Shown: positions 28,849 through 48,671 of the stretch, in pieces | Layout of the letters: each line of letters begins with the position of its first letter | Numbering within the stretch: the first letter of the stretch is position 1 | From: Flavicella sediminum | Lineage (GTDB): Bacteria; Bacteroidota; Bacteroidia; Flavobacteriales; Flavobacteriaceae | Direction of reading: 5' to 3' | NCBI RefSeq assembly: GCF_006381105.1 | Contig: NZ_VDET01000002.1 | Coordinates: 965,578 to 1,029,577 of the forward strand | DNA length: 64,000 nucleotides | Notes under the pieces: generated by a model | Databases searched by the model: none | The model's input: the letters and a program-made list of their open reading frames with translations, nothing else | Told to the model about the DNA's origin: nothing | Position numbers and translations under genes: made by a program

Positions 28849-28863
28849 ACACATCAATAAGAT

Positions 28864-30941: not shown

Positions 30942-30952
30942 AAAAAATTACT

Positions 30953-33049: not shown

Positions 33050-33062
33050 AAATACAAACTGC

Positions 33063-33095
33063 TCTATGCTTCCTTAAAACATAGAGCAGTTATTC
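33063..33095 (+). terminator. Perfect 10-bp stem-loop after the flotillin gene; possible partial terminator or attenuator
   Basis: CTGCTCTATG-cttccttaaaa-CATAGAGCAG followed by a moderately T-rich tract. Lies in the 256-bp gap before the giant ORF. Confidence 0.4.
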
Positions 33096-33305
33096 TATAA
33101 AATCATTATTCGTCAATTGGCTACCGACCAAAAACAACACTTTTATCAAAGTCATTAACTATAGACTTCAAAACACATAGTTCTGGGGCGTCCATTAGAA
33201 ATTCTCGAAGAAACAAAAACTGTCCATTTGAATAATTTCAAAACATAAAGACCTCACAAAGAGCATAAAAAAACTGCTACAAGGAATAAAGAAGACCGCA
33301 ACAAA

Positions 33306-36300
33306 ATGAAAAAAAACGCTATAACACTTGAAGGAGGAACTTATGAAATCATCCAAAACAGACTGCAAAATCATAAAAGTGACTTGGTGGAACGTTTGCA
33401 AGTTTTAAACACCGACAGAAAAGACATTTTTGGAGCCGTTGAAACCAAATTAATTGCGAATGACAGAATAAACACCGAGAATTCTTGTATTGCCAGAGAT
33501 ATAGTTTCTTTTGGGAATATTTGTTTATTTGGATACAATGTCCATTTTGGTTTGCGTTCAGAAATAAAATTAGCCGATGTATTCAGTGTTTATAAATTTC
33601 ATGAAAACAGATTTCAGCTACAAGACTTAACTTTTATCAACCAAGAAGCATTTGTCACTGATTTTAAAAATTTATACAAATACTATAGAAATACTTTTTT
33701 CACAAAATTCATGCTTACCGAGCAATACCTATACATGGTATTTCAAATTGGTGAAGAAATCAGCGATATCAAAGCTTTTAAATGGCTGGTAAAAAACAAC
33801 CAAATAAGCTACATCGACAATAGAAGTGATCATGAATACAAATTCCCTAACCAACACGAATTTAATTGGCAGGAAGTTAATTATGACAATTTCAGAAAAG
33901 GCGCACATCCTCATGTTTCTATTTTAGACAAGGTTTTTGTTGAAACTATTGGCGGTGATTTAACCATTAAAATAGAAGACAATTCTCAATCGGGCTTAGG
34001 AATTTATGCCGAACCTGTTGATAACAAAGACCAGACTTTAGATGACGGACAGTACAGATATGCCGACTTAGGTAACTTGACGGTTTTAGAAATTACACCT
34101 TACCTAGAGGAAGCACGTTATTTTGTGTACAACCATAAAGTACAAGAGGTAGCCCGAATTCAAAGCATAAAAGATACCGCAGTATTGTTGCCAGACGACC
34201 AAGGATTAATTTTTCCGGAAGGTTATTATTTACAGACAGGTACATTAAAAAAATTCGACAGAACTGTCAACAACGTAAAATTTCAGAAAAAAGTAGCCTC
34301 TCCTAATGGAGAAGATTTCTTATATGTTTTTTATGAAGAAACAGCTGGAGATTATGTGCTAATGCACTACAATATTATTGAGCAAAATATTCACCCACCC
34401 ATAATTTGCAACGGTTTTACACTTTTAGAAAACGGAGAACTCTCCTATTTTAAATCGGAAAATGAAGCGAATAAACATCATGTTATTCAAATTTGGCAAA
34501 CGCCATTTTCCAAAAAAATTAAATCCAATCCTGCCCATAGCGATTCACTTTTATACAAAATTGGAAACAAAGACATTGTAAAGGCCATGGCGGAATGCCA
34601 GGAACTAATTACACTTCTAAACAAAGAAGATAATTATGATGGTTTGTACAACGACATCGCCAAACAAAGCATTGATATAGTCGATTCTTATTATTGGATT
34701 TCAGAAAAAGAAACATCCAACTTAAGCGAACCCCTTACAGAAATAAACAGCACGGCAAATTCTGCCATTGATGAATTTGAGAAAGTAGTTCAGTTAAAGA
34801 AAATCGCCGCAGAGGTCACTGAAAATTTAGAAGCCGAAATTCAGAAACTTTTTGACAACATTAAACACAGCACCTTTAATTCTATTGATGATTTTGTTCA
34901 ACTTTTAACCCGATTAAGAGGCTCTCAAGGAAATTCAATTTCGCTAAAAGAAACACGCTATATAAACATAGAGCGCTTAGACGAAATCAATGAAACTATA
35001 AAGGAAGAAACGGAACGAATTTCAAGAAGATGTATTACTTTTTTACTGAATAAAAAGGCTTTAGACCCCTATCAAAAAAGAATTCAAGAGAAAAATAAAG
35101 TCTTAACCGAGTTAACAAAAGTAATTGAAGGAAAAGACTTAGAAGCAAGCATCAATCAGATAAGTGCCGACCTTGAATTACTAATAGATATTGTCAATAA
35201 TTTAGATATTGAAGACACCTCACATTCCACCACTATAATTGATAATATTTCTTTATTATTTGCAGAAATAAATCAATTAAAAGCAGGTGTAAAAAGAAAA
35301 GTTCAAAGCTTAAATGCCAAAGAAAGCAAAGCTGATTTTATTGCCCAATTAAAATTATTTGACCAAAGTATCATCAATTTTATTGATATAGCCAACACTC
35401 CTGAAAAATGTGAAGAATACCTTACCAAACTTTCGGTACAACTGGAAGAATTGGAAGGGAAATTTGCCGATTTCGATGAATACATTACAGAAATCATCAA
35501 CAAAAGAGAGGAAGTTTATAGCGCTTTTGAAAACAGAAAAAACACCTTAGTTGAAGCCAGAAACAAAAAAGGAATCGCCCTTCAAAATGCTTCTGAAAGA
35601 ATTTTAAAAAGCATTCATAAAAAAGCGGCAACTTTTAAAACAGAAGAAGAAATCCACGGTTATTTTGCTTCCGATATTATGGTGAATAAATTGCACAATA
35701 TTATTGAGCAATTACAAGAGCTAGAGGAAACAGGAAAAGCAGAAACCCTGCAAACCAATTTAAAATCGGCAAAAGAAGAGGTTCTTAGAAAATTAAAAGA
35801 CAGCTTAGATTTATACGAAGATGGCGATTCTGTCATCAAACTAGGAAAGCACAAATTTGGTGTTAACAAACAAGCCCTAGACTTAAATATTGTCAATAAA
35901 AACGGAGACTTATTTTTCCATTTGTCAGGAACCGATTTTCATGAAAAAATTGAAAATGAAGTTTTAAACTTATCCAAAGATATATGGAATCAAGATTTGA
36001 TTTCTGAAAATGAACATGTTTATCGATCTGAATTTTTAGCTTATAAAATATATCAAAAATACCCCCTTGCTTTCTTACTAGAAAAAACGACTGAAAACCT
36101 TGTGGAGCTAGTCAAACAAGAAAGCAGTGAAAACTATTCTGAAGGCTATGTAAAAGGTGTACACGATTTAGATGCGGCAGTCATTTTAAAACTTCTTATT
36201 CAAACAGAAAACGATTTACAATTATTGCGATTTACTCCAGTTACAAGGGCCAATGCGCAATTGTTTTGGAATCAATTAGAAAACGAAACAAAACAAGCTT

Positions 36301-38120
36301 TAAACCATAAAATAAAAGCAACAGGTGCAATTTTAAACATCTTTCCAGCATCCAAAGAATACCAAAGTTGTTTAGAAGCTATTTTAGATTTATTGCCAAG
36401 AAAAGAAAATTCTATTGCCAATTACCTATTTCAAGAAATAAAACAAAACGATCATTTTATTGTAAGTCAACAAGCCTTTGACTTAAAAACTGAATTTGTC
36501 AACTTTTTAAAAACAAAAGAAGTCTGGTCTAATTTTGAAAAATCATTGAATAATTTTACATCAGTCACCGACAGACTAGAATTGTGTACCCAATGGTTAA
36601 AATCGTATTGCAATACAACAGCTAGCAACTATGAATTTTACATTGCAGAAAGCGTTGTGCTGTTATTATTTAACAACCTACAACTACCTTATACTGCAAA
36701 TGAAACCCTGGAATCAAAAGAATTAAGAGGAGCACATTCACAAATTGTAGACGGCCTATACAGCTTTAACTATTTCGACTTTATTACTCGATTGTCAGAA
36801 TTTAACAACACTGTTGTAAAGCGATTTACAGACTACAAAGAGACTAAAAAAGAAATCATAGCAAACAAAAAAAGAAAATTAAAACTGAATGAGTTCAAAC
36901 CAAAAGTGCTTTCTTCTTTTGTTAGAAATAAATTGATCAATCAGGTTTACTTACCTCTTTTTGGAGATAACTTATCAAAACAATTGGGAACTGTTGGTCA
37001 CAACAAACGTACCGACCGTATGGGAATGCTATTGCTGATATCTCCACCAGGATATGGAAAAACAACCTTAATGGAATATATTTCAGAAAGATTGGGCTTG
37101 GTGTTTATGAAAATAAACGGTCCTGCTATCGGACATGAAATTACATCTGTAGACCCAATGGCAGCGAATAATTCTGCCACCAAACAGGAATTGGAAAAAC
37201 TAAATCTTGCTTTTGAAATGGGAAACAATGTGATGTTGTACCTAGATGATATTCAACATTGCAACCCAGAGTTTTTACAAAAATTTATATCGCTTGCAGA
37301 TGGACAGCGAAAAATAGAAGGCGTTTACAAAGGGGAAACAAAAACCTACGATTTTAAGGATAAAAAATTCTGTGTAATCATGGCCGGAAACCCTTATACA
37401 GAAAGCGGTGATAAATTCCGAATTCCAGATATGTTAACCAACCGTGCAGATATTTACAATTTAGGAGATGAAATTGGAGAAACGGAAAACTTATTCAAAT
37501 TAAGTTTGATAGAAAATGCACTGACATCCAACGATACTTTACGTCAATTAAGCAGTAAAAATTTCGATGATCTTTATACTTTAATAAACCATATTGAACA
37601 AAAAAGTACAGAAAGTATTGATTTAAAAGGAAACCATTCGCCACAAGAAATTAACGATTATATTTCTGTTTTAGAAAAAGTAATTAGCCTAAGAAACACG
37701 GTAGTAAAAGTAAATGAACAGTATATAAAATCTGCGGCAACAGAAGACGCCTACCGAACTGAACCAGCATTTAAACTACAAGGATCGTATAGAGACATGG
37801 GAAAATTGACGTCTAAAATTGTTCCTATTATGAATGCCAATGAGCTAGACAGTTTGTTATTGAGTCACTATGAAAGTGAATCACAAACACTAACCTCAGC
37901 AGCAGAAGCCAATTTATTAAAATACAAGGAAATGACTTCTTCTTTAACAAATGAAGAAGCCCTAAGATGGGAAAATATTAAAGAAACCTTTGTAAAAAAC
38001 AACAAGTTAAAAGGTTTTGGAAATCAAAATGAAATGGCACAGGTTTTACAACAACTGATGGATTTTTCTGAAAATTTAGAAGGCATCAAAGATGTTCTAA
38101 AAAACGGATTTGAAAAGTAA
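33306..38120 (+). CDS. Giant (1604-aa) cytoplasmic protein of unknown function with a C-terminal AAA+/P-loop NTPase module
   Basis: Uninterrupted ORF with no signal peptide or TM segment. Walker A LLLISPPGYGKTTL (nt 37026-37070). Walker B VMLYLDDIQ (nt 37230-37256). Sensor-1-like CVIMAGNPYT (nt 37371-37400). The first ~1200 aa have no motif I recognise; the central part is E/K/L/I-rich and looks helical or coiled-coil. Confidence 0.7.
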   Translation: MKKNAITLEGGTYEIIQNRLQNHKSDLVERLQVLNTDRKDIFGAVETKLIANDRINTENSCIARDIVSFGNICLFGYNVHFGLRSEIKLADVFSVYKFHENRFQLQDLTFINQEAFVTDFKNLYKYYRNTFFTKFMLTEQYLYMVFQIGEEISDIKAFKWLVKNNQISYIDNRSDHEYKFPNQHEFNWQEVNYDNFRKGAHPHVSILDKVFVETIGGDLTIKIEDNSQSGLGIYAEPVDNKDQTLDDGQYRYADLGNLTVLEITPYLEEARYFVYNHKVQEVARIQSIKDTAVLLPDDQGLIFPEGYYLQTGTLKKFDRTVNNVKFQKKVASPNGEDFLYVFYEETAGDYVLMHYNIIEQNIHPPIICNGFTLLENGELSYFKSENEANKHHVIQIWQTPFSKKIKSNPAHSDSLLYKIGNKDIVKAMAECQELITLLNKEDNYDGLYNDIAKQSIDIVDSYYWISEKETSNLSEPLTEINSTANSAIDEFEKVVQLKKIAAEVTENLEAEIQKLFDNIKHSTFNSIDDFVQLLTRLRGSQGNSISLKETRYINIERLDEINETIKEETERISRRCITFLLNKKALDPYQKRIQEKNKVLTELTKVIEGKDLEASINQISADLELLIDIVNNLDIEDTSHSTTIIDNISLLFAEINQLKAGVKRKVQSLNAKESKADFIAQLKLFDQSIINFIDIANTPEKCEEYLTKLSVQLEELEGKFADFDEYITEIINKREEVYSAFENRKNTLVEARNKKGIALQNASERILKSIHKKAATFKTEEEIHGYFASDIMVNKLHNIIEQLQELEETGKAETLQTNLKSAKEEVLRKLKDSLDLYEDGDSVIKLGKHKFGVNKQALDLNIVNKNGDLFFHLSGTDFHEKIENEVLNLSKDIWNQDLISENEHVYRSEFLAYKIYQKYPLAFLLEKTTENLVELVKQESSENYSEGYVKGVHDLDAAVILKLLIQTENDLQLLRFTPVTRANAQLFWNQLENETKQALNHKIKATGAILNIFPASKEYQSCLEAILDLLPRKENSIANYLFQEIKQNDHFIVSQQAFDLKTEFVNFLKTKEVWSNFEKSLNNFTSVTDRLELCTQWLKSYCNTTASNYEFYIAESVVLLLFNNLQLPYTANETLESKELRGAHSQIVDGLYSFNYFDFITRLSEFNNTVVKRFTDYKETKKEIIANKKRKLKLNEFKPKVLSSFVRNKLINQVYLPLFGDNLSKQLGTVGHNKRTDRMGMLLLISPPGYGKTTLMEYISERLGLVFMKINGPAIGHEITSVDPMAANNSATKQELEKLNLAFEMGNNVMLYLDDIQHCNPEFLQKFISLADGQRKIEGVYKGETKTYDFKDKKFCVIMAGNPYTESGDKFRIPDMLTNRADIYNLGDEIGETENLFKLSLIENALTSNDTLRQLSSKNFDDLYTLINHIEQKSTESIDLKGNHSPQEINDYISVLEKVISLRNTVVKVNEQYIKSAATEDAYRTEPAFKLQGSYRDMGKLTSKIVPIMNANELDSLLLSHYESESQTLTSAAEANLLKYKEMTSSLTNEEALRWENIKETFVKNNKLKGFGNQNEMAQVLQQLMDFSENLEGIKDVLKNGFEK

Positions 38121-38532
38121 TCGTATGCAAATTAAATCGCCAGCCAGCTTCTTTAATTACTATAAAGATTGTTACAAGTTAGACTATAAATACATTGAAA
38201 AACTAGAAAACAAACTATTTTATCGACCTTATTGGGTATCCTGGCCAATTTAATAACGCTTTTACTACAGAACGTTACAAAACCTTTGCTCGAGTTGGAA
38301 TAAGCACCATACCTTTACATTACCGATTTTGGAATGAAAACAAAACACAAGCAAAACAAAAACTAATACATCTCATAAATAAATAAATAAAGTACAAGTA
38401 TTAATTATACACCCCATCAATTTCAATTGAAGGTTAAGTACAACAAAAGAATAAAATAAAGTCTCGACTCCGCTCGACCTGACATAGAAACAAATTTGAT
38501 AATTATTATCAACTACTAAAAAGAAAACACAC

Positions 38533-39084
38533 ATGGGAATATTTGATTTTTTCAAGAAAAAAGAAAAAGAAAGACATTTTGATCCGACCAACATTACTGT
38601 AAGAGACTTAGGCAAAGGATACATTTTTGAATACATAATAGAAACTTGGACCGTTACCGCTTTGTTTGAATACGACTGGGGCGACAATTATTTTACCCGA
38701 GAGTTTATCATTAAAAACGGTACTATTGAAAAGTATTTAGAACTTGAGGATGATGGTGGCTTGGTTGTTACCATTTCCGAAAAAGTAAAACTGAGAAAAT
38801 TAGGTGACGAGGTGTGTGATTATATAGACAAACACGAAAAACCGCCTAAAAAAATAAACTTCGAAGGCGTTCAATATTTCCTTGATGAAAAATCTCCTGG
38901 CTTCTCTAAAGAAATTGATGCTGCCAACTGGGAAGAACTTATTTCCTACGACTACCTAGACAAAGAAGAAGAAAAAACACTTTGCATAGTTCAGTATGGC
39001 GACGAAGAATTTGAAGTAAGCAAAGGAACGATTATTAGTGAACTGGCTATTTCTAATATATTACCTGTGGCAGACAATTATTAG
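38533..39084 (+). CDS. DUF4178-like (B. subtilis YdjI-like) protein
   Basis: 183 aa, soluble and acidic, with conserved aromatic and acidic blocks (YDWGDNYF, FEGVQYF, CIVQYGDEEFEV). Family assigned from memory. YdjI is encoded in the B. subtilis pspA-ydjGHI operon. Confidence 0.5.
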   Translation: MGIFDFFKKKEKERHFDPTNITVRDLGKGYIFEYIIETWTVTALFEYDWGDNYFTREFIIKNGTIEKYLELEDDGGLVVTISEKVKLRKLGDEVCDYIDKHEKPPKKINFEGVQYFLDEKSPGFSKEIDAANWEELISYDYLDKEEEKTLCIVQYGDEEFEVSKGTIISELAISNILPVADNY

Positions 39085-39121
39085 TCTTCAAAACTCTAAC
39101 TTTGATTTTAAATTAATTCGA

Positions 39122-39919
39122 ATGAAAACACTCAAAACACTACTCTTCACAAGCGTACTACTTCTCGTAATTTCTTGCGGAAAAGAAGTCCGTAAAAAGT
39201 ATCTTAAATCGCCTTTAGACAACATCATCACTACATATATTGATGTACAAAACTACAGCGTTATCCTAGCGGATATGGATTATAAAGAGGCTACCGACAA
39301 GTATTTTCACAAGTACAAAATCATACTAGAAAAAAACAATGCTACAAAATCTACCGAAGATGATTTTGACATAACTACAACAGATTGGAAGGAAGTTTCT
39401 GCCATTACTTTTGAAGAGCACCAGCAAGATTTAGGAATGACCGTACTTTCTAAAAAAGACGGTGTGTTAGACAAAAAAGCAACACCCGCTGGCTACAACA
39501 ACTATGTAGGTAACAACAAATACGGAAACTGGCAAAGACAAAGCAACGGTACTTCTTTTTGGGTATTTTATGGGCAATACCATTTTATGAGATCTATGTT
39601 CTATGGTTCTAGCCATAGGTACTACAGAAATGATTATGATTATTACAGAACCAACCATTACGGAAGAAGTAATTACTATGGTAGAACTAATAATTTTGGA
39701 ACCTCTACGTATAAAAACACAAGTTCTAGCTGGACTGCCAAACCCAAAACATTTAAAGACAAGGTAAGAAGCAATGTAAAAAGAAGTTCTTCCGCTCTAA
39801 AATCAAAAGGGTACAGCTCTAGTAAAAGTTACAAAAGCTCAAACCAAACAACAAGAAACACAAACAGATACAGCAGCTCAAGTTCTTCACGCTCTCGTAG
39901 TGGCGGATTTGGTAAATAA
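39122..39919 (+). CDS. Lipoprotein with a Tyr/Arg/Ser/Asn/Gly-rich low-complexity C-terminal half
   Basis: Start at the ATG at 39122 (MKTLKTLLFTSVLLLVISCGKE, signal peptide plus lipobox Cys). The track ORF begins upstream at 39038. C-terminus reads ...YYRNDYDYYRTNHYGRSNYYGRTNNFG...SSSSSSRSRSGGFGK. Confidence 0.5.
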   Translation: MKTLKTLLFTSVLLLVISCGKEVRKKYLKSPLDNIITTYIDVQNYSVILADMDYKEATDKYFHKYKIILEKNNATKSTEDDFDITTTDWKEVSAITFEEHQQDLGMTVLSKKDGVLDKKATPAGYNNYVGNNKYGNWQRQSNGTSFWVFYGQYHFMRSMFYGSSHRYYRNDYDYYRTNHYGRSNYYGRTNNFGTSTYKNTSSSWTAKPKTFKDKVRSNVKRSSSALKSKGYSSSKSYKSSNQTTRNTNRYSSSSSSRSRSGGFGK

Positions 39920-39937
39920 TATAAAAGCTAGAAAAAC

Positions 39938-40807
39938 ATGGACAAATACATCAATATTATCGAGTTATCACATTCCCTTGGATACATCGTCAGCGGCTTT
40001 ATCATTTTTATCATTGGAAAAATTGCCTACAAATTACTTCACCCAAATATCAACATTCAACACGAACTAGTTGAAAAAGATAATTTTGCTTTTATCCTTT
40101 CGTATGTCGGTTATTTTGCCGCTTTAATAACAGCCATTGGTGGCGCTATTGTTGGCGAAAGTTATGATTTTGTAACTGACATCCTGCATATTTTTATGTA
40201 CGGAGGTATCGCTATTGTATTGTTATTATTGGCCGCATGGATTAGCAATAAAGTTATTCTAAATAAATTCGATCTTAAAAAAGAAATTATTACAGATAAA
40301 AACGAAGGTTCAGGAGTTATTGAAGCGGCTATTTATATGGCAAACGGACTTATTTTATACGGTGCTTTGGTGGGCGAATCTGAAACTTTAGTAGAAGGAA
40401 TTACCACTTTTATTATTTATTGGCTGATTGGAAATACAGTTCTTATTCTAGCTTCCAAACTATTTATTACTTGGATGAGCTACGACATTCATGCTGAAGT
40501 AGAAAAAGACAATGTAGCGGCTGGAATTAGTTTTTCTGGGGCTATACTCGCTATAGGAATTATTACCATGAATGCTATTTTAGATCCTTTTATTGATTGG
40601 ACTACAACAATTATAGACATCAGTTTGCAAACAATACTAGGTTGTTTACTACTGCCTATTATGCGTGTTTTTGCAGATAAAATTTTATTACCTGGAAGAA
40701 AACTTACCGATGAAATTATCAACCAAGAAAAACCAAATATTGGTGCCGGTTTGATTGAAGCCTTCGCCTATATCGCTTCTGCAATATTAATTACATGGAG
40801 TATCTAA
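39938..40807 (+). CDS. DUF350-like (E. coli YjfL-like) polytopic membrane protein with a repeated unit
   Basis: 289 aa. Four copies of an [ED]K[DPN]N-plus-hydrophobic-helix unit: EKDNFAFILSYVGYFAALITAIGG, DKNEGSGVIEAAIYMANGLILYG, EKDNVAAGISFSGAILAIGIITMN, EKPNIGAGLIEAFAYIASAILITW. Stop overlaps the next gene by 13 bp. Confidence 0.6.
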   Translation: MDKYINIIELSHSLGYIVSGFIIFIIGKIAYKLLHPNINIQHELVEKDNFAFILSYVGYFAALITAIGGAIVGESYDFVTDILHIFMYGGIAIVLLLLAAWISNKVILNKFDLKKEIITDKNEGSGVIEAAIYMANGLILYGALVGESETLVEGITTFIIYWLIGNTVLILASKLFITWMSYDIHAEVEKDNVAAGISFSGAILAIGIITMNAILDPFIDWTTTIIDISLQTILGCLLLPIMRVFADKILLPGRKLTDEIINQEKPNIGAGLIEAFAYIASAILITWSI

Positions 40808-42351
40808 AACAAAATTCTTTTGTATTAAAAGCCGCTATTTTTGCAACAGGTTTTGCAGGAATAGTAGCTGAATATACTCTTTCTACACTGGCCACCTATT
40901 TTATTGGAAATTCAATTTTTCAATGGACCATGATTGTCTCCTTGATGCTATTTTGCATGGGACTGGGAAGTAGATTGAGTAAATTAATTACAAAAAATTT
41001 AATTCAGAATTTTTTAATTCTAGAAACCACACTTTCGCTAATTGTTGCTTTTTCTTCGGTTTTGGTGTACACCCTTGCTTCGGTTAGTGAATACTACGGA
41101 ATTGTAATTTATTCCTTGAGTATGATTATCGGATTGCTGATTGGTTTAGAAATTCCATTGGTGGTTAGAATTAATAAAGAATACGAAGACTTAAAAAGCA
41201 ACATCTCTTCCATTTTAGAAAAAGACTATTATGGAAGTTTAATTGGCGGTGTATTTTTTGCCTTTATCGGCTTACCAATATTGGGCTTATCGTATACGCC
41301 TTTTGTCCTTGGAATTATTAATTTCTTAGTCGCACTCATTGTATTTTATCGTTTTAAAGACAAAATCAACAAGCAGCATACCTTTCGATTAAAAGCTGTT
41401 TTAACGGTGGTTTTTGCTATTTTAATTACAGGGATTGCCTTTACTGAACCTATTATTCAGTGGGGAGAACAGAAAAAATTCAAAGACAAAGTCATTTATT
41501 CTGCACAAACCAAATACCAAAATATTGTTTTAACCGAATGGAAAAAGGAACACTGGTTGTACTTAAATGGAAATTTACAATTCTGCTCCATTGATGAAAA
41601 AATGTATCACGAACCTTTGGTACACCCCATCATGCAATTGCACCCAAATCCGCAACGAATTTTAATTTTAGGTGGTGGCGATGGTTGTGCGGTTCGTGAG
41701 ATACTAAAATACCCAAGTGTTGAAAAAATTGACATGGTTGATTTAGATCCAAAAATGACAGATTTAGGAACACAGCACCCTGTTCTTATAAACATCAACC
41801 AAGGCAGCATGAACAGTGAAAAATTGAGTGTAATTAACAAGGATGCCTACATTCATTTGGAACAAAACACAAGTGACTTTTACGACATTATTATTGCCGA
41901 TTTACCTGACCCAAGAAACATTGAGCTTGGAAGGTTGTATTCTCATGAATTTTATTCGCTTTGCAATAGAAAACTAAGACCCAACGGCTTTATCATTACC
42001 CAAGCCGGAAGTCCGTATTTTGCTACAAAAGCTTATCACTGTATTGGAAAAACAATGCAATCAGCTGGTTTTACAACCGTAAACTTACACAATCAAGTAT
42101 TGTCTATGGGCGAGTGGGGTTGGATATTAGGAACAAAGAACACAGCGACAAACGCAAAGCAACTCAAGGAAAAATTACAAAGTATTGATTTCAAAAATGT
42201 AGAAACAAATTGGATCAACAACGAAGCTATGCAACTAATTACTTCTTTTGGAAAAGATTTTTTTAAACTAAATGATACTAGTGAAATTAATAAAGTCCAC
42301 AACCCTGTACTTTATCAATATTATTTAGATGGAAACTGGGATTTATATTAA
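40795..42351 (+). CDS. speE: Membrane-anchored polyamine aminopropyltransferase (spermidine/spermine synthase with an N-terminal ~7-TM domain)
   Basis: 518 aa. Residues 1-215 are polytopic. The C-terminal domain has ILILGGGDGCAVREILKY...VDLDPKMTDL...IIIADLPDP...FYS, the spermidine-synthase GGGDGG and D-L-D/ADLPDP signature. Confidence 0.8.
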   Translation: MEYLKQNSFVLKAAIFATGFAGIVAEYTLSTLATYFIGNSIFQWTMIVSLMLFCMGLGSRLSKLITKNLIQNFLILETTLSLIVAFSSVLVYTLASVSEYYGIVIYSLSMIIGLLIGLEIPLVVRINKEYEDLKSNISSILEKDYYGSLIGGVFFAFIGLPILGLSYTPFVLGIINFLVALIVFYRFKDKINKQHTFRLKAVLTVVFAILITGIAFTEPIIQWGEQKKFKDKVIYSAQTKYQNIVLTEWKKEHWLYLNGNLQFCSIDEKMYHEPLVHPIMQLHPNPQRILILGGGDGCAVREILKYPSVEKIDMVDLDPKMTDLGTQHPVLININQGSMNSEKLSVINKDAYIHLEQNTSDFYDIIIADLPDPRNIELGRLYSHEFYSLCNRKLRPNGFIITQAGSPYFATKAYHCIGKTMQSAGFTTVNLHNQVLSMGEWGWILGTKNTATNAKQLKEKLQSIDFKNVETNWINNEAMQLITSFGKDFFKLNDTSEINKVHNPVLYQYYLDGNWDLY

Positions 42352-42353
42352 GT

Positions 42354-42662
42354 ATGAAGACAACCTACAAACATATTGAAGCAAATATTTACAGTCATAA
42401 AATTTGGTCTGCTTGCACCGAGCCTTCAGCACTTAAAGAAACTTATGGCGGTTTATTAAAGGAAGTCGATTTTACGATTATTCTCTTTAATGAACATCAT
42501 TTTCCAGAACAAGGCTACACCTGTTTTTGGTTATTAGGTGAAAGTCATTTGGCCATACATACCTTTCCAGAAAGTGGCAAAAGTTATATTGAATTGAGCA
42601 GTTGCAATAAAGAAAAATTAGACTTATTCGTTGACAAGGAAAAAAGTATAAACCTGAAATAA
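42354..42662 (+). CDS. Small pyruvoyl-dependent S-adenosylmethionine decarboxylase proenzyme (SpeH/class-1-like)
   Basis: 102 aa. LLGESHLAIHTFPESG matches the AdoMetDC self-cleavage (E-S) and catalytic-site signature. Starts 2 bp after the speE stop. Confidence 0.65.
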   Translation: MKTTYKHIEANIYSHKIWSACTEPSALKETYGGLLKEVDFTIILFNEHHFPEQGYTCFWLLGESHLAIHTFPESGKSYIELSSCNKEKLDLFVDKEKSINLK

Positions 42663-42663
42663 A

Positions 42664-43440
42664 ATGAAAAAAAAAGTTAGAGATTTTATCAACCACAACA
42701 AAACCTTTATCAAATTCATTTATGCGCTAATTGTCTTAAATATCATTGCCTTAATTCTAGAGTCTTATGAGGAATTAAATGCCCAATACAGCCATATTTT
42801 TTATTATTTCGAACTGTTTTCAGTTGCTATTTTTACCGTGGAATACTTTATCCGAATTTGGGTTTCTGACAAAACAAAAGAAGACAAAAAAGAACGACTC
42901 AACTTTGCTTTCTCTACCTTAGGAATCATCGATTTGATTGCCATACTTCCCTTTTACCTTCCCTTTATTTTTCCTATCGATTTAAGAATTGTTCGTATAC
43001 TTCGCTTGTTTCGTTTGTTAAGAATTTTTAAACTAAGTCGCTATTCAAAATCACTAAAAACCATCCAGTATATTTTTAAAGAAGTAAAAGGAGAACTTTC
43101 CATCACCGTATTTGTCACTTTTGTTTTGATGATTTTATCTTCAACACTTATGTACTATATAGAACATGACGACCAACCAGAGCAATTTGCAAGTATTGGC
43201 GATGCTTTTTGGTGGTCTGTAGCAACACTAACAACCGTTGGCTATGGAGATGTTTACCCTGTAACCGGCCTAGGAAAATTATTAAGTGGAATTATTGCCT
43301 TGATCGGAATTGGTTTTGTAGCACTACCTACAGGAATTATCAGTTCTGCCTTTATTGCAAAAATACAAGCAGAAAAAAAACAGAAAAAGAAGAAAACCAT
43401 GTGTAACTGTCCACATTGTGGGAAAAATTTCGACTTATGA
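42664..43440 (+). CDS. Voltage-gated K+ channel (6-TM Kv-like) with a C-terminal CxCxxC zinc-ribbon-like tail
   Basis: 258 aa. S4 voltage sensor RIVRILRLFRLLRIFKLSRYSK. Selectivity filter TTVGYGDVYP. C-terminal ...KKKKTMCNCPHCGKNFDL. Starts 1 bp after the AdoMetDC stop. Confidence 0.8.
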   Translation: MKKKVRDFINHNKTFIKFIYALIVLNIIALILESYEELNAQYSHIFYYFELFSVAIFTVEYFIRIWVSDKTKEDKKERLNFAFSTLGIIDLIAILPFYLPFIFPIDLRIVRILRLFRLLRIFKLSRYSKSLKTIQYIFKEVKGELSITVFVTFVLMILSSTLMYYIEHDDQPEQFASIGDAFWWSVATLTTVGYGDVYPVTGLGKLLSGIIALIGIGFVALPTGIISSAFIAKIQAEKKQKKKKTMCNCPHCGKNFDL

Positions 43441-43976
43441 TTCCTAACAAATACATCATACAGTTTGTCATCTTATTATATGTTATCTATATAGTGAGCC
43501 TTGTTTTTCCCATAACAAAATTTGGAATTGTTCCAAGAACAACACAAGGACTTGCAGGAATTTTTACGGCTCCATTTTTACATGGCGGAATTTGGCACCT
43601 TGTTTCCAATACCATTCCTTTGCTTGTGTTACTTACTGTATTAAATCATTTTTATCCTAAAAAAACCATAGCGGTTGTGCTATTTATTATTGTTGCTAGC
43701 GGAATACTGGTATGGATTTTTGCAAGAAAAGCAAACCACATAGGGGCTAGCGGACTTATATACGGACTTGCCACATTTTTAATTTTAAATGGATTTTTGG
43801 AACAGAAATTTGTTTCCATACTTGTTTCATTAGCCGTAGCCTTACTCTATGGTGGATTGATCTGGGGAATTTTTCCTTCAGTCAGATCCTATATATCTTG
43901 GGAAGGACATTTATTTGGAGCCGCATCAGGTGTGTTTATTGCCTTTTTATTAAAAAACAAAGCTTTGTACACCTAA
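43437..43976 (+). CDS. Rhomboid-family intramembrane serine protease
   Basis: 179 aa from the ATG at 43437 (ATGA overlap with the K+ channel stop; the track start at 43416 is a TTG). TM2 HxxxN (WHLVSN). Catalytic GASGLIYG. TM6 His in EGHLFGAASG. Confidence 0.75.
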   Translation: MIPNKYIIQFVILLYVIYIVSLVFPITKFGIVPRTTQGLAGIFTAPFLHGGIWHLVSNTIPLLVLLTVLNHFYPKKTIAVVLFIIVASGILVWIFARKANHIGASGLIYGLATFLILNGFLEQKFVSILVSLAVALLYGGLIWGIFPSVRSYISWEGHLFGAASGVFIAFLLKNKALYT

Positions 43977-44000
43977 CTTTTAAGGAGTTGGCGAAGCATA

Positions 44001-44036
44001 AAAAAAGGCTGTAAAATAATTTTACAGCCTTTTTTA
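44001..44036. terminator. Bidirectional intrinsic terminator closing the + strand block and the convergent minus-strand gene
   Basis: A6-GGCTGTAAAAT-aa-ATTTTACAGCC-T6. Confidence 0.6.
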
Positions 44037-44051
44037 CTTTTAATCTTGCTA

Positions 44052-44525
44052 TTAAAAACTCATAGACAATCCAAAACCTTTTTCGTTCGCAACCAAATTA
44101 AATTTGGGTTGAAAATTAATTGAGGAAGTGGCCTCCAATGAATTGTTGTACATAGAAATAGCTTCATTCGTTTTTTTCACGACTTTAGAATTGATTGGCA
44201 AAGCAATAGCTATTAATCCCGCACCAATACCCGCCATGGTCCAATTGGCATCGCCACCAGCAATGGCACCTCCAATAGGATACCCCACTAAAAAGCCTCC
44301 AGCTCCACCTAAAATATTAGACCAAATACTTTTCGATTTCGCCTTCTTTACCAACTCAAAAGCCTGAGCATTCGATTCCATTGCCGTAACCAAATTTTTC
44401 ATACTAAGATTGCTTCCATTTTGGCTGTATTTATAACCACCAAATACTTTTGTCATTTCAATTTTTTGGGCATTGCAAAAACTAAATGACAATACAAATA
44501 CAAAGACTGCTACTATATTTTTCAT
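44052..44525 (-). CDS. Secreted or membrane glycine-zipper protein of unknown function
   Basis: 157 aa, signal peptide, GGAGGFLVGYPIGGAIAGG...AGIGAGLIAIALP. Confidence 0.4.
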   Translation of the reverse strand: MKNIVAVFVFVLSFSFCNAQKIEMTKVFGGYKYSQNGSNLSMKNLVTAMESNAQAFELVKKAKSKSIWSNILGGAGGFLVGYPIGGAIAGGDANWTMAGIGAGLIAIALPINSKVVKKTNEAISMYNNSLEATSSINFQPKFNLVANEKGFGLSMSF

Positions 44526-44581
44526 AAACTATTTTTTAGCTGTGCAAAATAATAATTTTCCACTAAAAAAGAATTCTTTCT

Positions 44582-45025
44582 TTATAATTTACGCCAGTTT
44601 TCATCTGCCTTCTTTTTCAAAACCTCTGCCCCTTCCTCATTCCATAGCTTTAAGGTATTTATTCCCCATGAATTGTAAAACAAATACAATTTACCATCTC
44701 TAATTTCAAAAGTTTTAGGATTTATATCTACTTTTTCATTTTTCGCCCCTATTGCATAGCCACACCAACCACCATACTGAGGTTGGTATTTTTTAGGATT
44801 GGCTTTAAATTTCTTTAAATTTTCAGCCGAAGAAAACTTGTATTTTACACCTTCAATTTCCGTTACAAAAGCTTTTTCACCTTCGGTAGCCTTGTCCTCA
44901 AAATAAGCCACCACATCATAGCCATCTGCAGCAAAACCTTTTTTATTTGTGTTCGTAGTTTGTTGTGCAAAAAGGGATGACGCCCCCAATACAACTAACA
45001 AAATAAATATTCTTTTTTTCCACAT
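44582..45025 (-). CDS. YHS-domain (TRASH-like metal-binding) secreted protein
   Basis: 147 aa, signal peptide, YDVVAYF...YQPQYGGWCGYAIG, the YHS-domain pattern. Confidence 0.5.
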   Translation of the reverse strand: MWKKRIFILLVVLGASSLFAQQTTNTNKKGFAADGYDVVAYFEDKATEGEKAFVTEIEGVKYKFSSAENLKKFKANPKKYQPQYGGWCGYAIGAKNEKVDINPKTFEIRDGKLYLFYNSWGINTLKLWNEEGAEVLKKKADENWRKL

Positions 45026-45111: not shown

Positions 45112-46107
45112 TTAAGATATCAAAAGATTGCATCCTCTAATATCAGAATTGTCAAAACGTCCTAAAATTTCAAAGCTTTTATCTGCATGAATTTTCCCTA
45201 AATCTTGGGTCGCAATAAAAGCACACGAATTTTGATTTGCCAAATCGATAACATTGATTCCTCCTGTTTTTCCAGTTGGTAAAAGACTTAAAGGATCTTC
45301 AGTGTCTCTAATTAAGATTTTCATCCAAGGGGGTGTTTCAAAAATTCCGTGCCCTTTGGAATAGGCCTGACTCAACAATTCTGTCATTCCATATTCTGAA
45401 TGAATTTCAGTCAAACCAAAACCTGCTTTTAATTCCGCATGCAATTCCTCACGAATCATTTCTTTACGCTTTCCTTTCATACCACCTGTTTCCATAACAA
45501 GCGTATTTTTTAATGAAAACTGGTGTTTTTCAATTAAGTCTAACAAAGCAAAAGAAACGCCTATCAATAAAACTTTCTCTCCACGCGCATCCAATTCCTC
45601 CAAAGTTGCAATCAGTTCGTCTAAATTATGCAGGTAAAAACCACTTTCCTTTTTCTTCGATTTTTGAATCAAATCATCCACCATATAAATTAGTGAAGAT
45701 CCTTCACGTTCTAAATACGAAGGCAAGAGTGCCAAAACCACATATTCTTCAATATTTCCGTAAAAATGCGAAAAGCCTAGTCGGTAACTTTCTTCGTACA
45801 AAGACAAATCTGTGACATGATGTTTGCTTTGCTGCATGCCTGTAGTACCACTACTTAAAAACGTTTGCACAATCTTATTTTTATCAGAAAGTATGGTATG
45901 ACTTTTAAAAAACTGTATTGGCAAAAAAGGAATATCAGCCAAACAACGCACCTCAGCAATAGAAATATTTAGGTGTGCTAAATATTCGCTATAAACAGGA
46001 TTGTTTACTGCTTGAAATTGAAAAGTAGCCAAAGCCAAATCTTCAAATTCTTGTTCCGTTTTTAATGCAAATAGTTGTGCGTTCATTTTTAAAAGTAAGC
46101 AACACAA
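45112..46107 (-). CDS. LuxE-like acyl-protein synthetase / acyl-CoA reductase-associated adenylating enzyme family
   Basis: 331 aa. SSGTTG adenylation motif near residue 85. LuxE-like overall layout. Assignment tentative. Confidence 0.45.
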   Translation of the reverse strand: MCCLLLKMNAQLFALKTEQEFEDLALATFQFQAVNNPVYSEYLAHLNISIAEVRCLADIPFLPIQFFKSHTILSDKNKIVQTFLSSGTTGMQQSKHHVTDLSLYEESYRLGFSHFYGNIEEYVVLALLPSYLEREGSSLIYMVDDLIQKSKKKESGFYLHNLDELIATLEELDARGEKVLLIGVSFALLDLIEKHQFSLKNTLVMETGGMKGKRKEMIREELHAELKAGFGLTEIHSEYGMTELLSQAYSKGHGIFETPPWMKILIRDTEDPLSLLPTGKTGGINVIDLANQNSCAFIATQDLGKIHADKSFEILGRFDNSDIRGCNLLIS

Positions 46108-46223
46108 AAATACTTCAAATTTATAGAACGCTCGAAAAGAAATACCGCAAAAAAAATAAACTTACCACGCAACCAATTCTACTTTTCTGTGTCTTACTAG
46201 TAAGAATCAAAAAATTTATACTC

Positions 46224-46649
46224 ATGAAACGAATTTTATACTTTGCCTTATTCACCCTGTTATTCACTTCTTGTCAAAACGACAATGACGATTATCCGGA
46301 TTTTCATTTTGCAGTTTTACCCATTGAAGAGGCCACAATTCCTAGCTCTTTTGAATTGGGGGAAACTTATGAAATTACCTTAAAATATTCTTTACCAAAC
46401 AGCTGTCATAGTTTTTATAGCTTGTATTACAAATACGATGAAGCCAATAGAATTGTGGCCATAAATTCATTTGTCGACGATGAATCGGAATGTACAGAAG
46501 CCTTAATTTCTAAAGAATACAGTTTTGACGTAAAAGTAACTCAAGAAGAAGATTATGTATTTAAACTTTGGAAAGGCGTAGATGACGATGATGAAGATAT
46601 TTTTGAAGAAATAACTGTTCCGGTAACAGACCCAAATGACCCTCAATAA
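46224..46649 (+). CDS. Small acidic lipoprotein (1 of 3 upstream of the serpin)
   Basis: ATG at 46224, MKRILYFALFTLLFTSCQND. Two further Cys. Acidic tail DDDDEDIFEE. Stop overlaps the next start (TAATG). Confidence 0.5.
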   Translation: MKRILYFALFTLLFTSCQNDNDDYPDFHFAVLPIEEATIPSSFELGETYEITLKYSLPNSCHSFYSLYYKYDEANRIVAINSFVDDESECTEALISKEYSFDVKVTQEEDYVFKLWKGVDDDDEDIFEEITVPVTDPNDPQ

Positions 46650-47053
46650 TGAAAAAAGCTGCTGTTTTTATTTTTTCCTTACTGCTTTTTATTAGTTGTA
46701 CTGAAAATGAAATTTTCCAATTGGACAAAGAATTTTCGCTTCAACTAAAAGAAAGTGCCCTAATTTCTACAAACACAAACAATAGTGAAAATTTAAAAAT
46801 AGAGTTTCACGAATTGCTAGAGTATTCTGTTTGCCCAGAAAACGTGAATTGTATTTGGGCAGGTAGAGCCATAGTAAACTTAAAAATAAACGACAGCGAA
46901 ATCCTTCAATTGGCATTACTTGATAACGATATTCCTTCTAAAAAAATGCAAGACGGCTATGAAATCACTTTGGTAGATGTAACTTTCATCAAAACAAATT
47001 CTACTGAAAACAGCTATTCCGTTCACCTCATCATAAAAAAAACGACTCCATGA
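46649..47053 (+). CDS. Small lipoprotein (2 of 3)
   Basis: 134 aa, lipobox LLFISCTEN. Cys pair CPENVNC. Block similarity to the preceding gene (YEITL...). Overlaps the next gene by 4 bp. Confidence 0.5.
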   Translation: MKKAAVFIFSLLLFISCTENEIFQLDKEFSLQLKESALISTNTNNSENLKIEFHELLEYSVCPENVNCIWAGRAIVNLKINDSEILQLALLDNDIPSKKMQDGYEITLVDVTFIKTNSTENSYSVHLIIKKTTP

Positions 47054-47454
47054 AAAAATTACTCATTCTTTTCAGCTTTCTAAGTGTTTTAACCAGTGCT
47101 TGCAACGAACAAGAAACTTTGGAGATAGACTCGGATAATTTACTGATAGGTTCTTGGTCGCATCCTCAGTATACCGACAATCAAGTTCGCTATACGCGAG
47201 TTGCGAACACCGTGCAAAATGAATACACCTGTACTTTTAAAAATGATGGTACCTTAGTTGAAAATAAAAATGCAGGTTGGTGCGGCACCCCTCCCATTAC
47301 TTACGATGAATTTACAGGAAAATGGAATTTAGAAAACGAAGAGACTGTCAATTTAGAATCGACCTACTGGGGAGGTTCTCATACAGTCAAATGGGAAATT
47401 ATTTCTCTTACAGATGACAGCTTGATTGTTGAAATAAACTATCCAAACTTATAA
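47050..47454 (+). CDS. Lipocalin-like lipoprotein (3 of 3)
   Basis: 134 aa, lipobox LTSACNEQ, then GSWSHP..., a beta-rich body and a Cys pair. Confidence 0.45.
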   Translation: MKKLLILFSFLSVLTSACNEQETLEIDSDNLLIGSWSHPQYTDNQVRYTRVANTVQNEYTCTFKNDGTLVENKNAGWCGTPPITYDEFTGKWNLENEETVNLESTYWGGSHTVKWEIISLTDDSLIVEINYPNL

Positions 47455-47456
47455 GC

Positions 47457-48671
47457 ATGAAAAAAATACTTTTACACACTATAGCCCTTGTGCTTCTAAT
47501 AGCAATAACAGCCTGTACTAGTTCAAACGGACTGACCTCCAACCCCGTTATTTTTAAAAAGACGGCTAAAAAAACACAGCTCATCGAATCAAATAATGAG
47601 TTTGCTTTTTCTTTCTTTAAAGAAGTGGCTATTGCCGATGAAGAAAACTATATGGTGTCACCCGTTAGTTTATCTCTAGCTTTAGGAATGCTGTACAACG
47701 GCGCCGAAACAAGTACAAAAAGCATTATGGGAAATGTTTTAGGCTACCAGGACTTTACTTCAGATGAATTGAGTTTGGTCAATCAAGAAATTATGCAAAC
47801 CTTAGAAGGTGATGTTTTGCAAATTGCCAATTCTAACTGGATCAAAGAAGGTTTTCCTATAAAAGAAACCTTTACAAATTTGAATCAAACCTATTACGAT
47901 GCGGAAATTAGAACTGAGAATTTTAGCGACCCAAATACGGTAGCCCTCATCAATAATTGGGTAGCCAACAAAACCAATAACAAAATAACGGAAATTATAA
48001 AAACCATTTCGCCGGAAGCCGTACTGTATTTAATCAACGCTATTTATTTCAATGCCAATTGGGAATACGAATTCAAAACAGAAAACACAATACAAGCTCC
48101 TTTTTATACTGATGCGAACAACAGTAGCCAAGTGGCTATGATGCAACTGCAATCAGATAAGTTGGCTTTTTATAAAAACGAATTGTTTTCATCACTGATA
48201 CTTCCTTATAAAAATAACAAATACAGCATGACCTTGCTCCTTCCTAACGAAGGAAAAAACATAGCCGATCTTGTTGAAAATATAGATGGAACTATATGGA
48301 ATACCTGGCAAAGCAAGTACCAAATCCAAAAAACAAGTCTGAGTTTACCCAAATTTAAATTTGAATATCAAAACACCTTAAATGACGAGTTGGCAAAATT
48401 AGGTTTGGAAACACTTTTTGGCAATCCTGATCTTTCTGGAATTGCCGAGGCTCGATTGAAAGTTTCTAAAGTTCTTCAAAAAACATTTATTGACGTAAAC
48501 GAAAAAGGTACAGAAGCAGCCGCCGTAACTGTTATTGGAATAGAAACAACCTCTGCCAGTCCACGACCACATGTAAACTGTAACAAACCTTTTTTATTTG
48601 CTATTACAGAAAGGGAAACCGGCGCTATTTGTTTTATTGGAAAAGTAGGGAAACCTGAATATTCGAAATAG
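47457..48671 (+). CDS. Serpin (serine protease inhibitor) lipoprotein
   Basis: 404 aa. Lipobox IAITACTSS. Serpin core (MVSPVSLSLALGMLYNGA, NAIYFNANWEYEF). Hinge GTEAAAVT, reactive-centre loop ...IGIETTSASPRPHV, then NKPFLFAI. Confidence 0.85.
   Translation: MKKILLHTIALVLLIAITACTSSNGLTSNPVIFKKTAKKTQLIESNNEFAFSFFKEVAIADEENYMVSPVSLSLALGMLYNGAETSTKSIMGNVLGYQDFTSDELSLVNQEIMQTLEGDVLQIANSNWIKEGFPIKETFTNLNQTYYDAEIRTENFSDPNTVALINNWVANKTNNKITEIIKTISPEAVLYLINAIYFNANWEYEFKTENTIQAPFYTDANNSSQVAMMQLQSDKLAFYKNELFSSLILPYKNNKYSMTLLLPNEGKNIADLVENIDGTIWNTWQSKYQIQKTSLSLPKFKFEYQNTLNDELAKLGLETLFGNPDLSGIAEARLKVSKVLQKTFIDVNEKGTEAAAVTVIGIETTSASPRPHVNCNKPFLFAITERETGAICFIGKVGKPEYSK

Follow-up and report, generated by a model that had tools for sequence, protein, structure and literature searches.

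Within 64,000 nucleotides (nt) of the genome of Flavicella sediminum, a marine member of the Flavobacteriaceae (contig NZ_VDET01000002.1, positions 965,578 to 1,029,577 of the forward strand; the window hereafter) the + strand interval 38533-43976 is a module of seven closely packed genes, running from a DUF4178 gene through to a rhomboid gene and bounded by a terminator-like hairpin. Its central genes encode a membrane-fused aminopropyltransferase, called TM-SpeE here for its transmembrane (TM) helices, and a very small S-adenosylmethionine decarboxylase (AdoMetDC). In our judgement the module on balance probably serves aminopropylation coupled to the membrane, within a PspA envelope-stress locus, with decarboxylated S-adenosylmethionine (dcAdoMet) as the donor and something other than putrescine as the acceptor. 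The association of these genes is not new, having been published by Ravi et al. 2024 and by Li et al. 2019 (Biochem J 476:2579), and the locus adds no new category; it is a compact example in which the full predicted pathway stands in one tightly spaced, terminator-bounded gene series.

The genes follow one another with little or no spacing. The DUF4178 gene (38533-39084) is separated by 37 nt from the lipoprotein gene (39122-39919), and this in turn by 18 nt from the gene of an eight-TM DUF350 protein of the YjfL family (39938-40807), the end of which overlaps the start of the TM-SpeE gene (40795-42351) by 13 nt. From the TM-SpeE stop to the AdoMetDC start (42354-42662) there are 2 nt, the K+ channel gene (42664-43440) begins 1 nt past the AdoMetDC stop codon, and the start of the rhomboid gene (43437-43976), the final gene of the module, overlaps the channel stop by 4 nt (ATGA). 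The closing hairpin at 44001-44035 (+ strand), the sole strong terminator-like one for the unit, has a 16-bp stem and then a T-rich tail; sites in the terminator scan overall were no more numerous than in shuffled sequence, and this call is made on stem length and position. A preliminary description of the same DNA had let the unit end at 42662, too early by the K+ channel and rhomboid genes that belong to it, and was right in the open reading frames (ORFs) that it placed, in the motifs that it quoted (GGGDGC, ADLPDP and ESHLAIHTFPE, all present), and in the DUF350-SpeE coupling and 2-bp SpeE-AdoMetDC spacing, now read from the sequence as the 13-nt overlap and the 2 nt.

The aminopropyltransferase domain and its acceptor

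TM-SpeE is a protein of 518 amino acids (aa) in which an N-terminal membrane domain (residues 1-228), resembling half of a major facilitator superfamily (MFS) transporter, precedes a SpeE catalytic domain (229-518). Residues 7-515 match positions 18-518 of the 522-position NCBIfam profile NF002956 (PRK03612) with 580.3 bits against a cut-off of 472, the members of that family being likewise built from a multi-helix N-terminal membrane domain joined to a SpeE fold. Proteins 90% identical to it occur in Cellulophaga, and its relatives make up at least 849 clusters (50% identity) at E <= 1e-30 and 7132 at E <= 1e-10. With a full-length family match and so many related clusters the fusion is not the atypical enzyme that it had at first been taken for. 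Some relatives of about 610-620 aa (P0363 and P0371) have no membrane segments and carry a second, N-terminal SpeE-like domain, giving tandem aminopropyltransferase domains.

The Spermine_synth domain of TM-SpeE covers residues 268-451 (126 bits), with GGGDGC at 293-298 and ADLPDP at 368-373. Seven residues (D267, E273, D318, D369, D372, Y382 and Q403) are invariant in a 38-sequence alignment of the family; among 116 members D318, D369 and D372 are found in 116/116 and the other four in at least 111 each, while D296 is kept in 103/116, with Asp or Glu at that position in 106/116. As far as alignment can tell, the catalytic domain retains the residues for dcAdoMet binding and for aminopropyl transfer, and these, with S64, H69 and C84 of the decarboxylase, agree with the earlier view of a complete SpeE/AdoMetDC pair. 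The closest matches to the catalytic domain are the T. thermophilus triamine/agmatine aminopropyltransferase, the SpeE proteins of P. calidifontis and P. horikoshii, and thermospermine synthase. With the T. thermophilus enzyme (1uir, 3anx) and thermospermine synthase (6bq2) it shares the DL(T/P)DP...LY(S/T) active-site region, but these are soluble enzymes with known polyamine substrates and the window domain is only 27-31% identical to them.

The complete set of dcAdoMet-dependent transfer residues would also serve an ordinary pathway, in which spermidine or some longer polyamine in free form (thermospermine, spermine or aminopropyl-homospermidine) is made by the pair and released at the membrane under stress, and the closest solved relatives of the domain do make polyamines. 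Polyamines block K+ channels, and a K+ channel is co-encoded; the NCBI family name, too, is 'polyamine aminopropyltransferase'. A precedent exists in the P. aeruginosa SpeD2-SpeE2 pair (PA4773-PA4774; PMC11107197), which also consists of an adjacent class 1b AdoMetDC and atypical aminopropyltransferase and is a second such pair. PA4773 lies immediately upstream of PA4774 and the proposed product norspermidine may take part in antibiotic resistance (PMC11107197 sections 7, 11), the same paper citing pmrAB mutants for norspermidine production and surface-localized spermidine for outer-membrane protection (its references 40 and 52). However, SpeE2 is a soluble thermospermine synthase of 349 aa and SpeD2 has 160 aa, and unlike the window that system has no membrane domain, DUF350, lipoprotein or PspA. 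Free polyamines would not obviously require the MFS-like domain, DUF350, the lipoprotein and DUF4178 as obligate partners, and TM-SpeE falls below the cut-offs of the canonical SpeE equivalog models (TIGR00417, 150.7 vs 249.55; NF002010, 177.5 vs 260). According to PMC12803844 (section 4, citing Li et al. 2019 and coming from the same laboratory), experiments have shown bacterial membrane-aminopropyltransferase fusions to be uninvolved in spermidine or spermine biosynthesis, and in Flavobacterium species sym-homospermidine is the major polyamine with spermidine only in traces (PMC8570120 section 25). Spermidine, the product first proposed for the pair, is on these two grounds unlikely, and an ordinary polyamine pathway as a whole seems improbable.

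A probable minimal AdoMetDC

The protein encoded next to TM-SpeE has 102 aa and resembles a pared-down class 1b pyruvoyl AdoMetDC. It is 100% identical to a protein on record for Flavicella sediminum, contains ESHLAIHTFPE and matches AdoMet_dc (PF02675) with 51.7 bits, the gathering score being 25. Its S64, H69 and C84 align with S63, H68 and C83 of the T. maritima AdoMetDC, which are the processing and catalytic residues of that enzyme (PMC10407285 section 7), and a self-cleavage site is predicted between E63 and S64. Across 36 short homologues 29 positions are invariant, E63-S64, H69 and C84 among them, so that the short family shares an invariant E-S-H...H...C core. The best 120 of 286 homologues all carry PF02675 and, apart from one partial sequence, are 94-109 aa long; the small size is therefore a trait of the family, and a local truncation or frameshift was rejected as its cause. 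In the AlphaFold model (pLDDT 91.5) a beta-alpha-beta4-alpha fold ends after the second helix, longer homologues having an additional portion of helix and a strand, and the top structural match is the T. maritima AdoMetDC (TM-score to 1tmi 0.65, query-normalised). Searches with the family hidden Markov models (HMMs) found no second speE or speD copy within the 64-kb window.

Whether such a protein is an AdoMetDC at all deserves weighing. Arginine and ornithine decarboxylases have repeatedly arisen from AdoMetDC homologues and keep the same Ser/His/Cys (PMC10407285 abstract, section 7), and a pyruvoyl decarboxylase of that kind could supply the acceptor here; or the protein could be a non-catalytic partner of the transferase as in human spermine synthase, to the non-catalytic N-terminal domain of which Foldseek also matches it (3c6k, E 9e-5). 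A score below the TIGR03330 cut-off and the absence of the last beta-strand would fit either role. However, the intact dcAdoMet site in the transferase needs a source of dcAdoMet and this gene starts 2 nt after TM-SpeE, the 29 invariant positions favour catalysis over a scaffold, and the best matches by both sequence and fold are true AdoMetDCs. A role other than AdoMetDC is thus very improbable, and we take the protein to be an active minimal AdoMetDC, as its conserved residues would suggest, a change of substrate being possible. In two clade-B homologues from Bacteroidota (L035:7301-7651 and L063:7752-8108; the clades are defined below) a Ser replaces the catalytic Cys83 (VFLSNF), and these proteins may be inactive or work differently.

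Conservation of the module among relatives

Relatives of the locus were surveyed in 80 loci taken from species-representative genomes, together with 3 obtained by exact look-up, their six-frame ORFs being scanned with iterated HMMs seeded from the window proteins. Clade A comprises loci whose TM-SpeE is at least 45% identical to that of the window (n=16, counting those flanked by 3.5 kb on either side) and clade B those at about 37% (n=34). Of the 75 loci whose upstream DNA was long enough, 56 have DUF350 directly upstream of TM-SpeE, and in 25/45 an AdoMetDC gene is no more than 10 kb away from it, a linkage of TM-SpeE with its partner genes that is far beyond chance; homologues cut loose from DUF350 and PspA, which the preliminary description had considered as evidence to the contrary, were not the pattern found. 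In clade A the DUF350 protein takes the long eight-TM form (13/16) and in clade B a form of about 70 aa (28/34). The lipoprotein occupies its expected position in 14/16 clade-A loci and occurs in 1/34 of clade B; DUF4178 leads the module in 11/16 and is seen in 4/34; for PspA the counts are 9/16 and 2/34, for CesT 8/16 and 1/34, and for the K+ channel 8/16 and 3/34. AdoMetDC runs the other way, with 6/16 in clade A and 21/34 in clade B, where it lies about 2 kb upstream; a position immediately downstream of TM-SpeE (within 79 bp) is found only in Bacteroidota members of clade A. Conservation thus holds for the linkage of TM-SpeE, proposed from the window, with the lipoprotein, DUF4178 and DUF350, and in one clade only for that with PspA.

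A contiguous CesT-PspA-DUF4178-lipoprotein-DUF350-SpeE-AdoMetDC-K channel operon is present in Carboxylicivirga. The gene order of the window module recurs in five survey loci (L002, L003, L007, L008 and L009), with the CesT-PspA dyad contiguous with the module in four of them (L002, L007, L008 and L009), and in Tenacibaculum flotillin-like and AAA+ genes occupy the same interval as in the window. The usual layout of clade B is an AdoMetDC gene, a gene for a zinc-ribbon/TM protein of about 410 aa, a 70-aa DUF350, TM-SpeE and a twin-arginine oxidase-like protein. This last protein, of about 540 aa (e.g. L054:11451-13082), is encoded by a gene overlapping or close after the TM-SpeE gene; a twin-arginine motif starts 23/28 of the large ORFs directly after TM-SpeE (loci L030-L083), followed by a hydrophobic stretch, in many cases by a lipobox cysteine, and further on by a GxGxxG dinucleotide-binding motif. 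These features suggest a periplasmic amine-oxidase-like partner, and with it a substrate or product of the pathway that is outside the cytoplasm.

The gene-linkage study by Li and colleagues is said to find AdoMetDC genes in thousands of genomes together with DUF350 and an MFS-SpdSyn-like fusion; hosts of the fusion reportedly have no spermidine, the fusion reportedly fails to complement a speE deletion, and the AdoMetDC homologues that co-occur with fusions are said to be enzymatically active AdoMetDCs. The system of that study shares with the window the co-occurrence of AdoMetDC, an MFS-class membrane/SpdSyn-like fusion and DUF350, its AdoMetDC is reported to be of the class-1b type whereas that of the window is shortened to 102 aa, and the acceptor is reportedly concluded not to be putrescine. 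In the literature searched no newer functional study of DUF350 or of the TM-SpeE fusion was found.

The second published frame is that of Ravi et al. 2024 (mSystems, PMC11237479 section 19), in which operons with the CesT/Tir-PspA dyad fall into three groups. In group 1 the dyad is joined by a band-7/flotillin protein, a TM protein resembling YqiJ/YuaF and a novel AAA+ ATPase; in group 2, exemplified by Shewanella oneidensis AAN56744-AAN56747, its companions are a fusion of an SpdSyn-like domain with a transporter-like 7TM domain, YjfL/DUF350 in the 8TM form, DUF4178 and a lipoprotein described as novel; and the E. coli yjf type, which has an ATP-grasp ligase, makes up group 3 (PMC11237479 section 19). 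The authors mention that a polyamine link also comes from the AdoMetDC gene-linkage study (Li et al. 2019), and propose a monitoring of polyamines or of the aminopropylation of other substrates (PMC11237479 section 20). With the group-2 operon the window shares the dyad (29004-30170), the 7TM-SpdSyn-like protein, the 8TM DUF350 and DUF4178, as well as the proposed logic by which PspA membrane dynamics is tied to polyamine level or to aminopropylation of other substrates. Unlike that single contiguous operon of six to seven genes, the window has its pspA gene (29472-30170) 8.3 kb 5' of DUF4178, with YqiJ-like, flotillin-like and AAA+ genes and a gene remnant between them; it has AdoMetDC, K+ channel and rhomboid genes in addition, and is without the ribbon-helix-helix gene at the end. 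From the Carboxylicivirga, Cellulophaga and Tenacibaculum layouts it follows that the operon in the window is of group 2, with a group-1 set inserted in it.

The parallel with E. coli yjfIJKLMC drawn in the preliminary description is the one that Ravi et al. draw (PMC11237479 section 19), both loci having a CesT/Tir-like protein (YjfI), a PspA protein (the paralogue YjfJ), DUF350 (YjfL), a lipoprotein and a polyamine-related enzyme, and yjf-related operons including a K+ channel as the window does (PMC11237479 section 19). The E. coli enzyme belongs with the ATP-grasp ligases and is a relative of glutathionylspermidine synthetase, that of the window being an aminopropyltransferase; E. coli has a 4TM DUF350, a DUF1190 lipoprotein and no AdoMetDC, whereas the window has the 8TM form and an AdoMetDC. 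A second parallel, that B. subtilis pspA is co-operonic with a DUF4178 gene ydjI, has to be withdrawn, YdjI being an SPFH protein (PMC8581546).

Membrane topology and the face of catalysis

In the AlphaFold model of TM-SpeE (pLDDT 92.9, pTM 0.84) the membrane domain consists of six long helices, at 2-36, 40-64, 69-97, 101-127, 133-186 and 193-228, and as modelled it is a six-helix MFS-like half. The earlier figure of about seven TM segments stands in so far as hydropathy gives seven hydrophobic segments, and falls short in that the model has six helices. Acidic residues within the helices are conserved among the 116 sequences (E26 in 98, E77 in 94, E119 in 106 and D144 in 105), as are R125 and N176. 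Since SpeE enzymes are oligomers, a homodimer could restore a full MFS-like cavity, one fit for a cation.

The number of crossings decides on which face of the membrane the catalytic domain stands. Family mean Lys+Arg counts are 2.6 for the N-terminus, 2.2 for loop 2-3, 3.4 for loop 4-5 and 3.7 for loop 184-199, and 0.0 for loop 1-2, 0.2 for loop 3-4 and 0.6 for the turn 156-170, where hydropathy dips at the conserved P161, G164, T168 and P169. Taken together the charge distribution and the dip would predict an N-in protein with seven crossings and its C-terminus out. The model, with helix 133-186 unbroken and a six-helix MFS half, would lead one to expect six crossings, with the catalytic domain in the cytoplasm. 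In homologues the N-terminal extensions are acidic and have no signal-peptide features, which fits N-in under both topologies. Because dcAdoMet is cytoplasmic, a cytoplasmic catalytic domain is favoured, clearly if not overwhelmingly.

Were the catalytic domain periplasmic, dcAdoMet would have to pass through the acidic MFS-like domain or through DUF350, and an envelope macromolecule would be aminopropylated. This might be the lipoprotein (for example on its ...RSRSGGFGK tail), some other protein that is exported, or an amine lipid, of which phosphatidylethanolamine and ornithine lipid are examples. The family-wide charge distribution and hydropathy dip speak for such an arrangement, and predicted-exported partners are conserved, namely the lipoprotein and, in 23/28 clade-B loci, the twin-arginine flavoprotein. 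The donor being a cytoplasmic metabolite speaks against it, and we know of no exporter for dcAdoMet. Nor does the model lend itself to seven crossings, the stretch 133-186 being unbroken at pLDDT 88-95.

A further argument for the periplasmic side comes by analogy from the fungal N-terminal histidine methyltransferase NHMT (A. nidulans AN4663), in which a 7TM domain of about 215 residues is joined to an SpdS-like Rossmann domain, an architecture like that of TM-SpeE. NHMT is located in the endoplasmic reticulum; it methylates the N-terminal histidine of signal-peptide-bearing secreted enzymes, for which its TM domain is required (PMC10349129 sections 8-10), and it had formerly been annotated as a spermidine/spermine synthase (PMC10349129). 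It has an Ile in GxG(D/E)G and so uses S-adenosylmethionine as a methyl donor (PMC10349129), whereas the window enzyme has GGGDG and its family the dcAdoMet-binding Asp. Membership of TM-SpeE in the NHMT family was rejected, hhalign having aligned the catalytic domain only (probability 64%). The NHMT membrane domain scored no better than shuffles against the bacterial membrane-domain HMM, the AN4663 sequence for this comparison having been rebuilt from damaged text with 13 blocks masked. Homology beyond the catalytic fold was thus not seen, and NHMT serves as an analogy only, showing that an enzyme so built can modify proteins instead of making polyamines. All told, a periplasmic catalytic domain appears doubtful.

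A model for the module

In the membrane-coupled reading that we prefer, the 102-aa AdoMetDC, with the sequence and fold for it, would cleave itself at E63/S64 and make dcAdoMet in the cytoplasm. The C-terminal domain of TM-SpeE would then bind dcAdoMet by way of GGGDG, D318 and D350, all of which are present, and D369 and D372 would move the aminopropyl group onto an amine acceptor. From the published work on homologues and from the nearest relatives, that acceptor would not be putrescine, nor the product bulk spermidine, the catalytic domain standing nearest to agmatine/triamine and thermospermine-type enzymes, which take longer substrates. The N-terminal domain, which has the fold of half an MFS-type transporter with E26, E77, E119 and D144 buried, would as a homodimer, possibly with the adjacent DUF350, provide a cationic substrate or product with a route, and synthesis would in this manner be linked with delivery, whether into the inner membrane or across it. 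Going by gene context, the output would act on the envelope side, where the co-encoded lipoprotein sits, and would, along with PspA, the flotillin-like protein, the K+ channel and the rhomboid, help in adapting to membrane stress.

Several points weigh against this account. The charge bias and hydropathy dip of the membrane domain would, as said, predict seven crossings and a periplasmic catalytic domain. The AdoMetDC scores 42.6 against the TIGR03330 equivalog cut-off of 75.65 and its model is without the C-terminal strand of the solved class 1b enzymes, and for these two reasons its activity is not certain. In 10/16 clade-A loci there is no AdoMetDC gene inside 10 kb. The membrane-aminopropyltransferase fusions that others tested may belong to clade A or to clade B. 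Lastly, a 412-bp scar ahead of the DUF4178 gene, described below, may or may not break transcription from the pspA promoter.

The other genes of the module

The DUF4178 protein (PF13785, 57.5 bits) has neither a TM segment nor a signal peptide, and no hydrophobic segment was found in it. The lipoprotein, by contrast, has a signal peptide with the lipobox LLVISC, VISC being residues 16-19. It has no match among Pfam or NCBIfam models and is probably the 'Ctha_1186 domain' lipoprotein of PMC11237479. An alignment of 24 sequences (that of the window and 23 from the surveyed loci) brings out a conserved folded domain with conserved motifs, and a tail that is nearly without acidic residues, rich in Arg, Ser, Gly and Tyr, and ends in a conserved ...RSRSGGFGK; in the C-terminal 115 residues of the window protein Ser makes up 23%, Tyr 12%, Arg 10% and Glu 0%. 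The conserved end of the tail is a candidate site of modification or recognition.

The DUF350 protein matches two copies of the 133-position PF03994 model (160.9 bits), which amounts to four 2-TM units. The K+ channel is of the six-TM voltage-sensor type (Ion_trans, 127.8 bits; Ion_trans_2, 64.6 bits), with a TVGYGD filter and an Arg-rich S4. It is a bare channel of that type and has a C-terminal CNCPHCGKNF, relatives in other orders having a TrkA_N/RCK domain instead (locus L002). The rhomboid-family intramembrane protease matches PF01694 with 74.2 bits, and the Cellulophaga locus L003 shares the K+ channel-rhomboid arrangement.

Downstream of the locus, at 46065-48671, three consecutive genes for small predicted lipoproteins are followed by that of a serpin (404 aa; PF00079, 352 bits) with a lipoprotein-type signal.

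The upstream PspA section

The module is the last part of an uninterrupted series of same-strand genes at 29004-43976 (+ strand). The series opens with the dyad, composed of a CesT/Tir-like chaperone (29004-29399; PF22550 CesT_Tir_1, 193 bits, full length) and a PspA/IM30 family protein (29472-30170; PF04012, 146.9 bits), which in the profile search lies under the E. coli PspA equivalog cut-offs and is therefore a member of the family and not an orthologue of E. coli PspA. The membrane protein at 30231-30941 has hydrophobic segments and no Pfam match, and we infer from its position beside the flotillin-like gene and from the description in PMC11237479 section 19 that it is the putative YqiJ/YuaF-like partner with three TM segments. 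The flotillin-like protein (698 aa, 30953-33049) consists of one N-terminal TM segment and a long Glu/Lys/Ala-rich coiled coil; no Pfam match was obtained for it and Band_7 is absent even at E <= 1. Its composition and context point to an SPFH protein, in which case it may be a very divergent one, or it may be something else; in the Tenacibaculum locus L004 a homologue lies upstream of the AAA+ gene. The AAA+ ATPase (1604 aa, 33306-38120; DUF3686 PF12458, 594 bits; DUF7902 PF25472, 82 bits; AAA_5, 32.6 bits) corresponds to the 'novel AAA+ ATPase' of group-1 PspA operons (PMC11237479 section 19). Between the flotillin-like and AAA+ genes there is a perfect palindromic hairpin with a 16-bp stem (33057-33091), which may be a terminator or an attenuator that divides the locus into separate transcripts.

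The 412 bp before DUF4178 hold a remnant of a helicase-like gene (38125-38383, + strand). In Cellulophaga (L003:5040-7736) an intact 898-aa AAA_11/AAA_12 helicase-like protein is encoded between pspA and DUF4178, and by tblastn its residues 1-22 match 38125-38190 of the window (68% identity, E 3e-8) and its residues 842-898 match 38213-38383 (84% identity, E 2e-30). These pieces differ in reading frame, about 820 codons having been lost, and as the first 22 and last 57 codons remain, this gap is a deletion scar and not a regulatory region. A promoter of its own in the gap was rejected, there being no TAnnTTTG box and a sigma-70-type scan of it being no richer than shuffles. A Bacteroidetes -7 box (TATATTTG) is present at 28841, in the region shared by the CesT gene and the divergent gene of an HTH_3 regulator (28059-28802, - strand; 40.4 bits) with a weak Peptidase_S24-like C-terminal part (20.6 bits, under the cut-off). 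In Cellulophaga L003 and in L009 homologues of this regulator are likewise placed divergently, which makes it a candidate regulator of the locus, and it could repress the stress genes as a self-cleaving protein of the LexA/CI type. An Rfam scan of 28000-45000 returned no riboswitch or other RNA at gathering thresholds. An anti-phage defence system was rejected as an identity for the locus, PADLOC having given just coiled-coil, P-loop and generic methyltransferase noise.

Significance

Details that are new here are the MFS half with its conserved acidic residues, the decarboxylase core of 102 residues, the helicase scar, and the oxidase-like partner of clade B with its signal for twin-arginine translocation. 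Overall the evidence directs attention to the membrane and the periplasm over the cytoplasmic polyamine pool. A more far-reaching proposal, which we hold only tentatively and regard as unlikely, is that TM-SpeE is an envelope-modifying aminopropyltransferase and no polyamine synthase, the MFS-like dimer and DUF350 bringing together dcAdoMet and an acceptor that would come to lie on the inner membrane's outer face. In that event the acceptor would be an amine lipid (phosphatidylethanolamine or ornithine lipid) or the basic lipoprotein tail, and the modification would add positive charge under stress. If true, this would mean that lipids or proteins of bacteria undergo a covalent modification of a new kind, and would give a function to DUF350/YjfL, to DUF4178 and to the 'polyamine-independent AdoMetDC' genes. 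Which molecule is aminopropylated is a question dating from 2019, and if the acceptor is a lipid or a protein the answer would be a new envelope modification tied to the Psp stress response.

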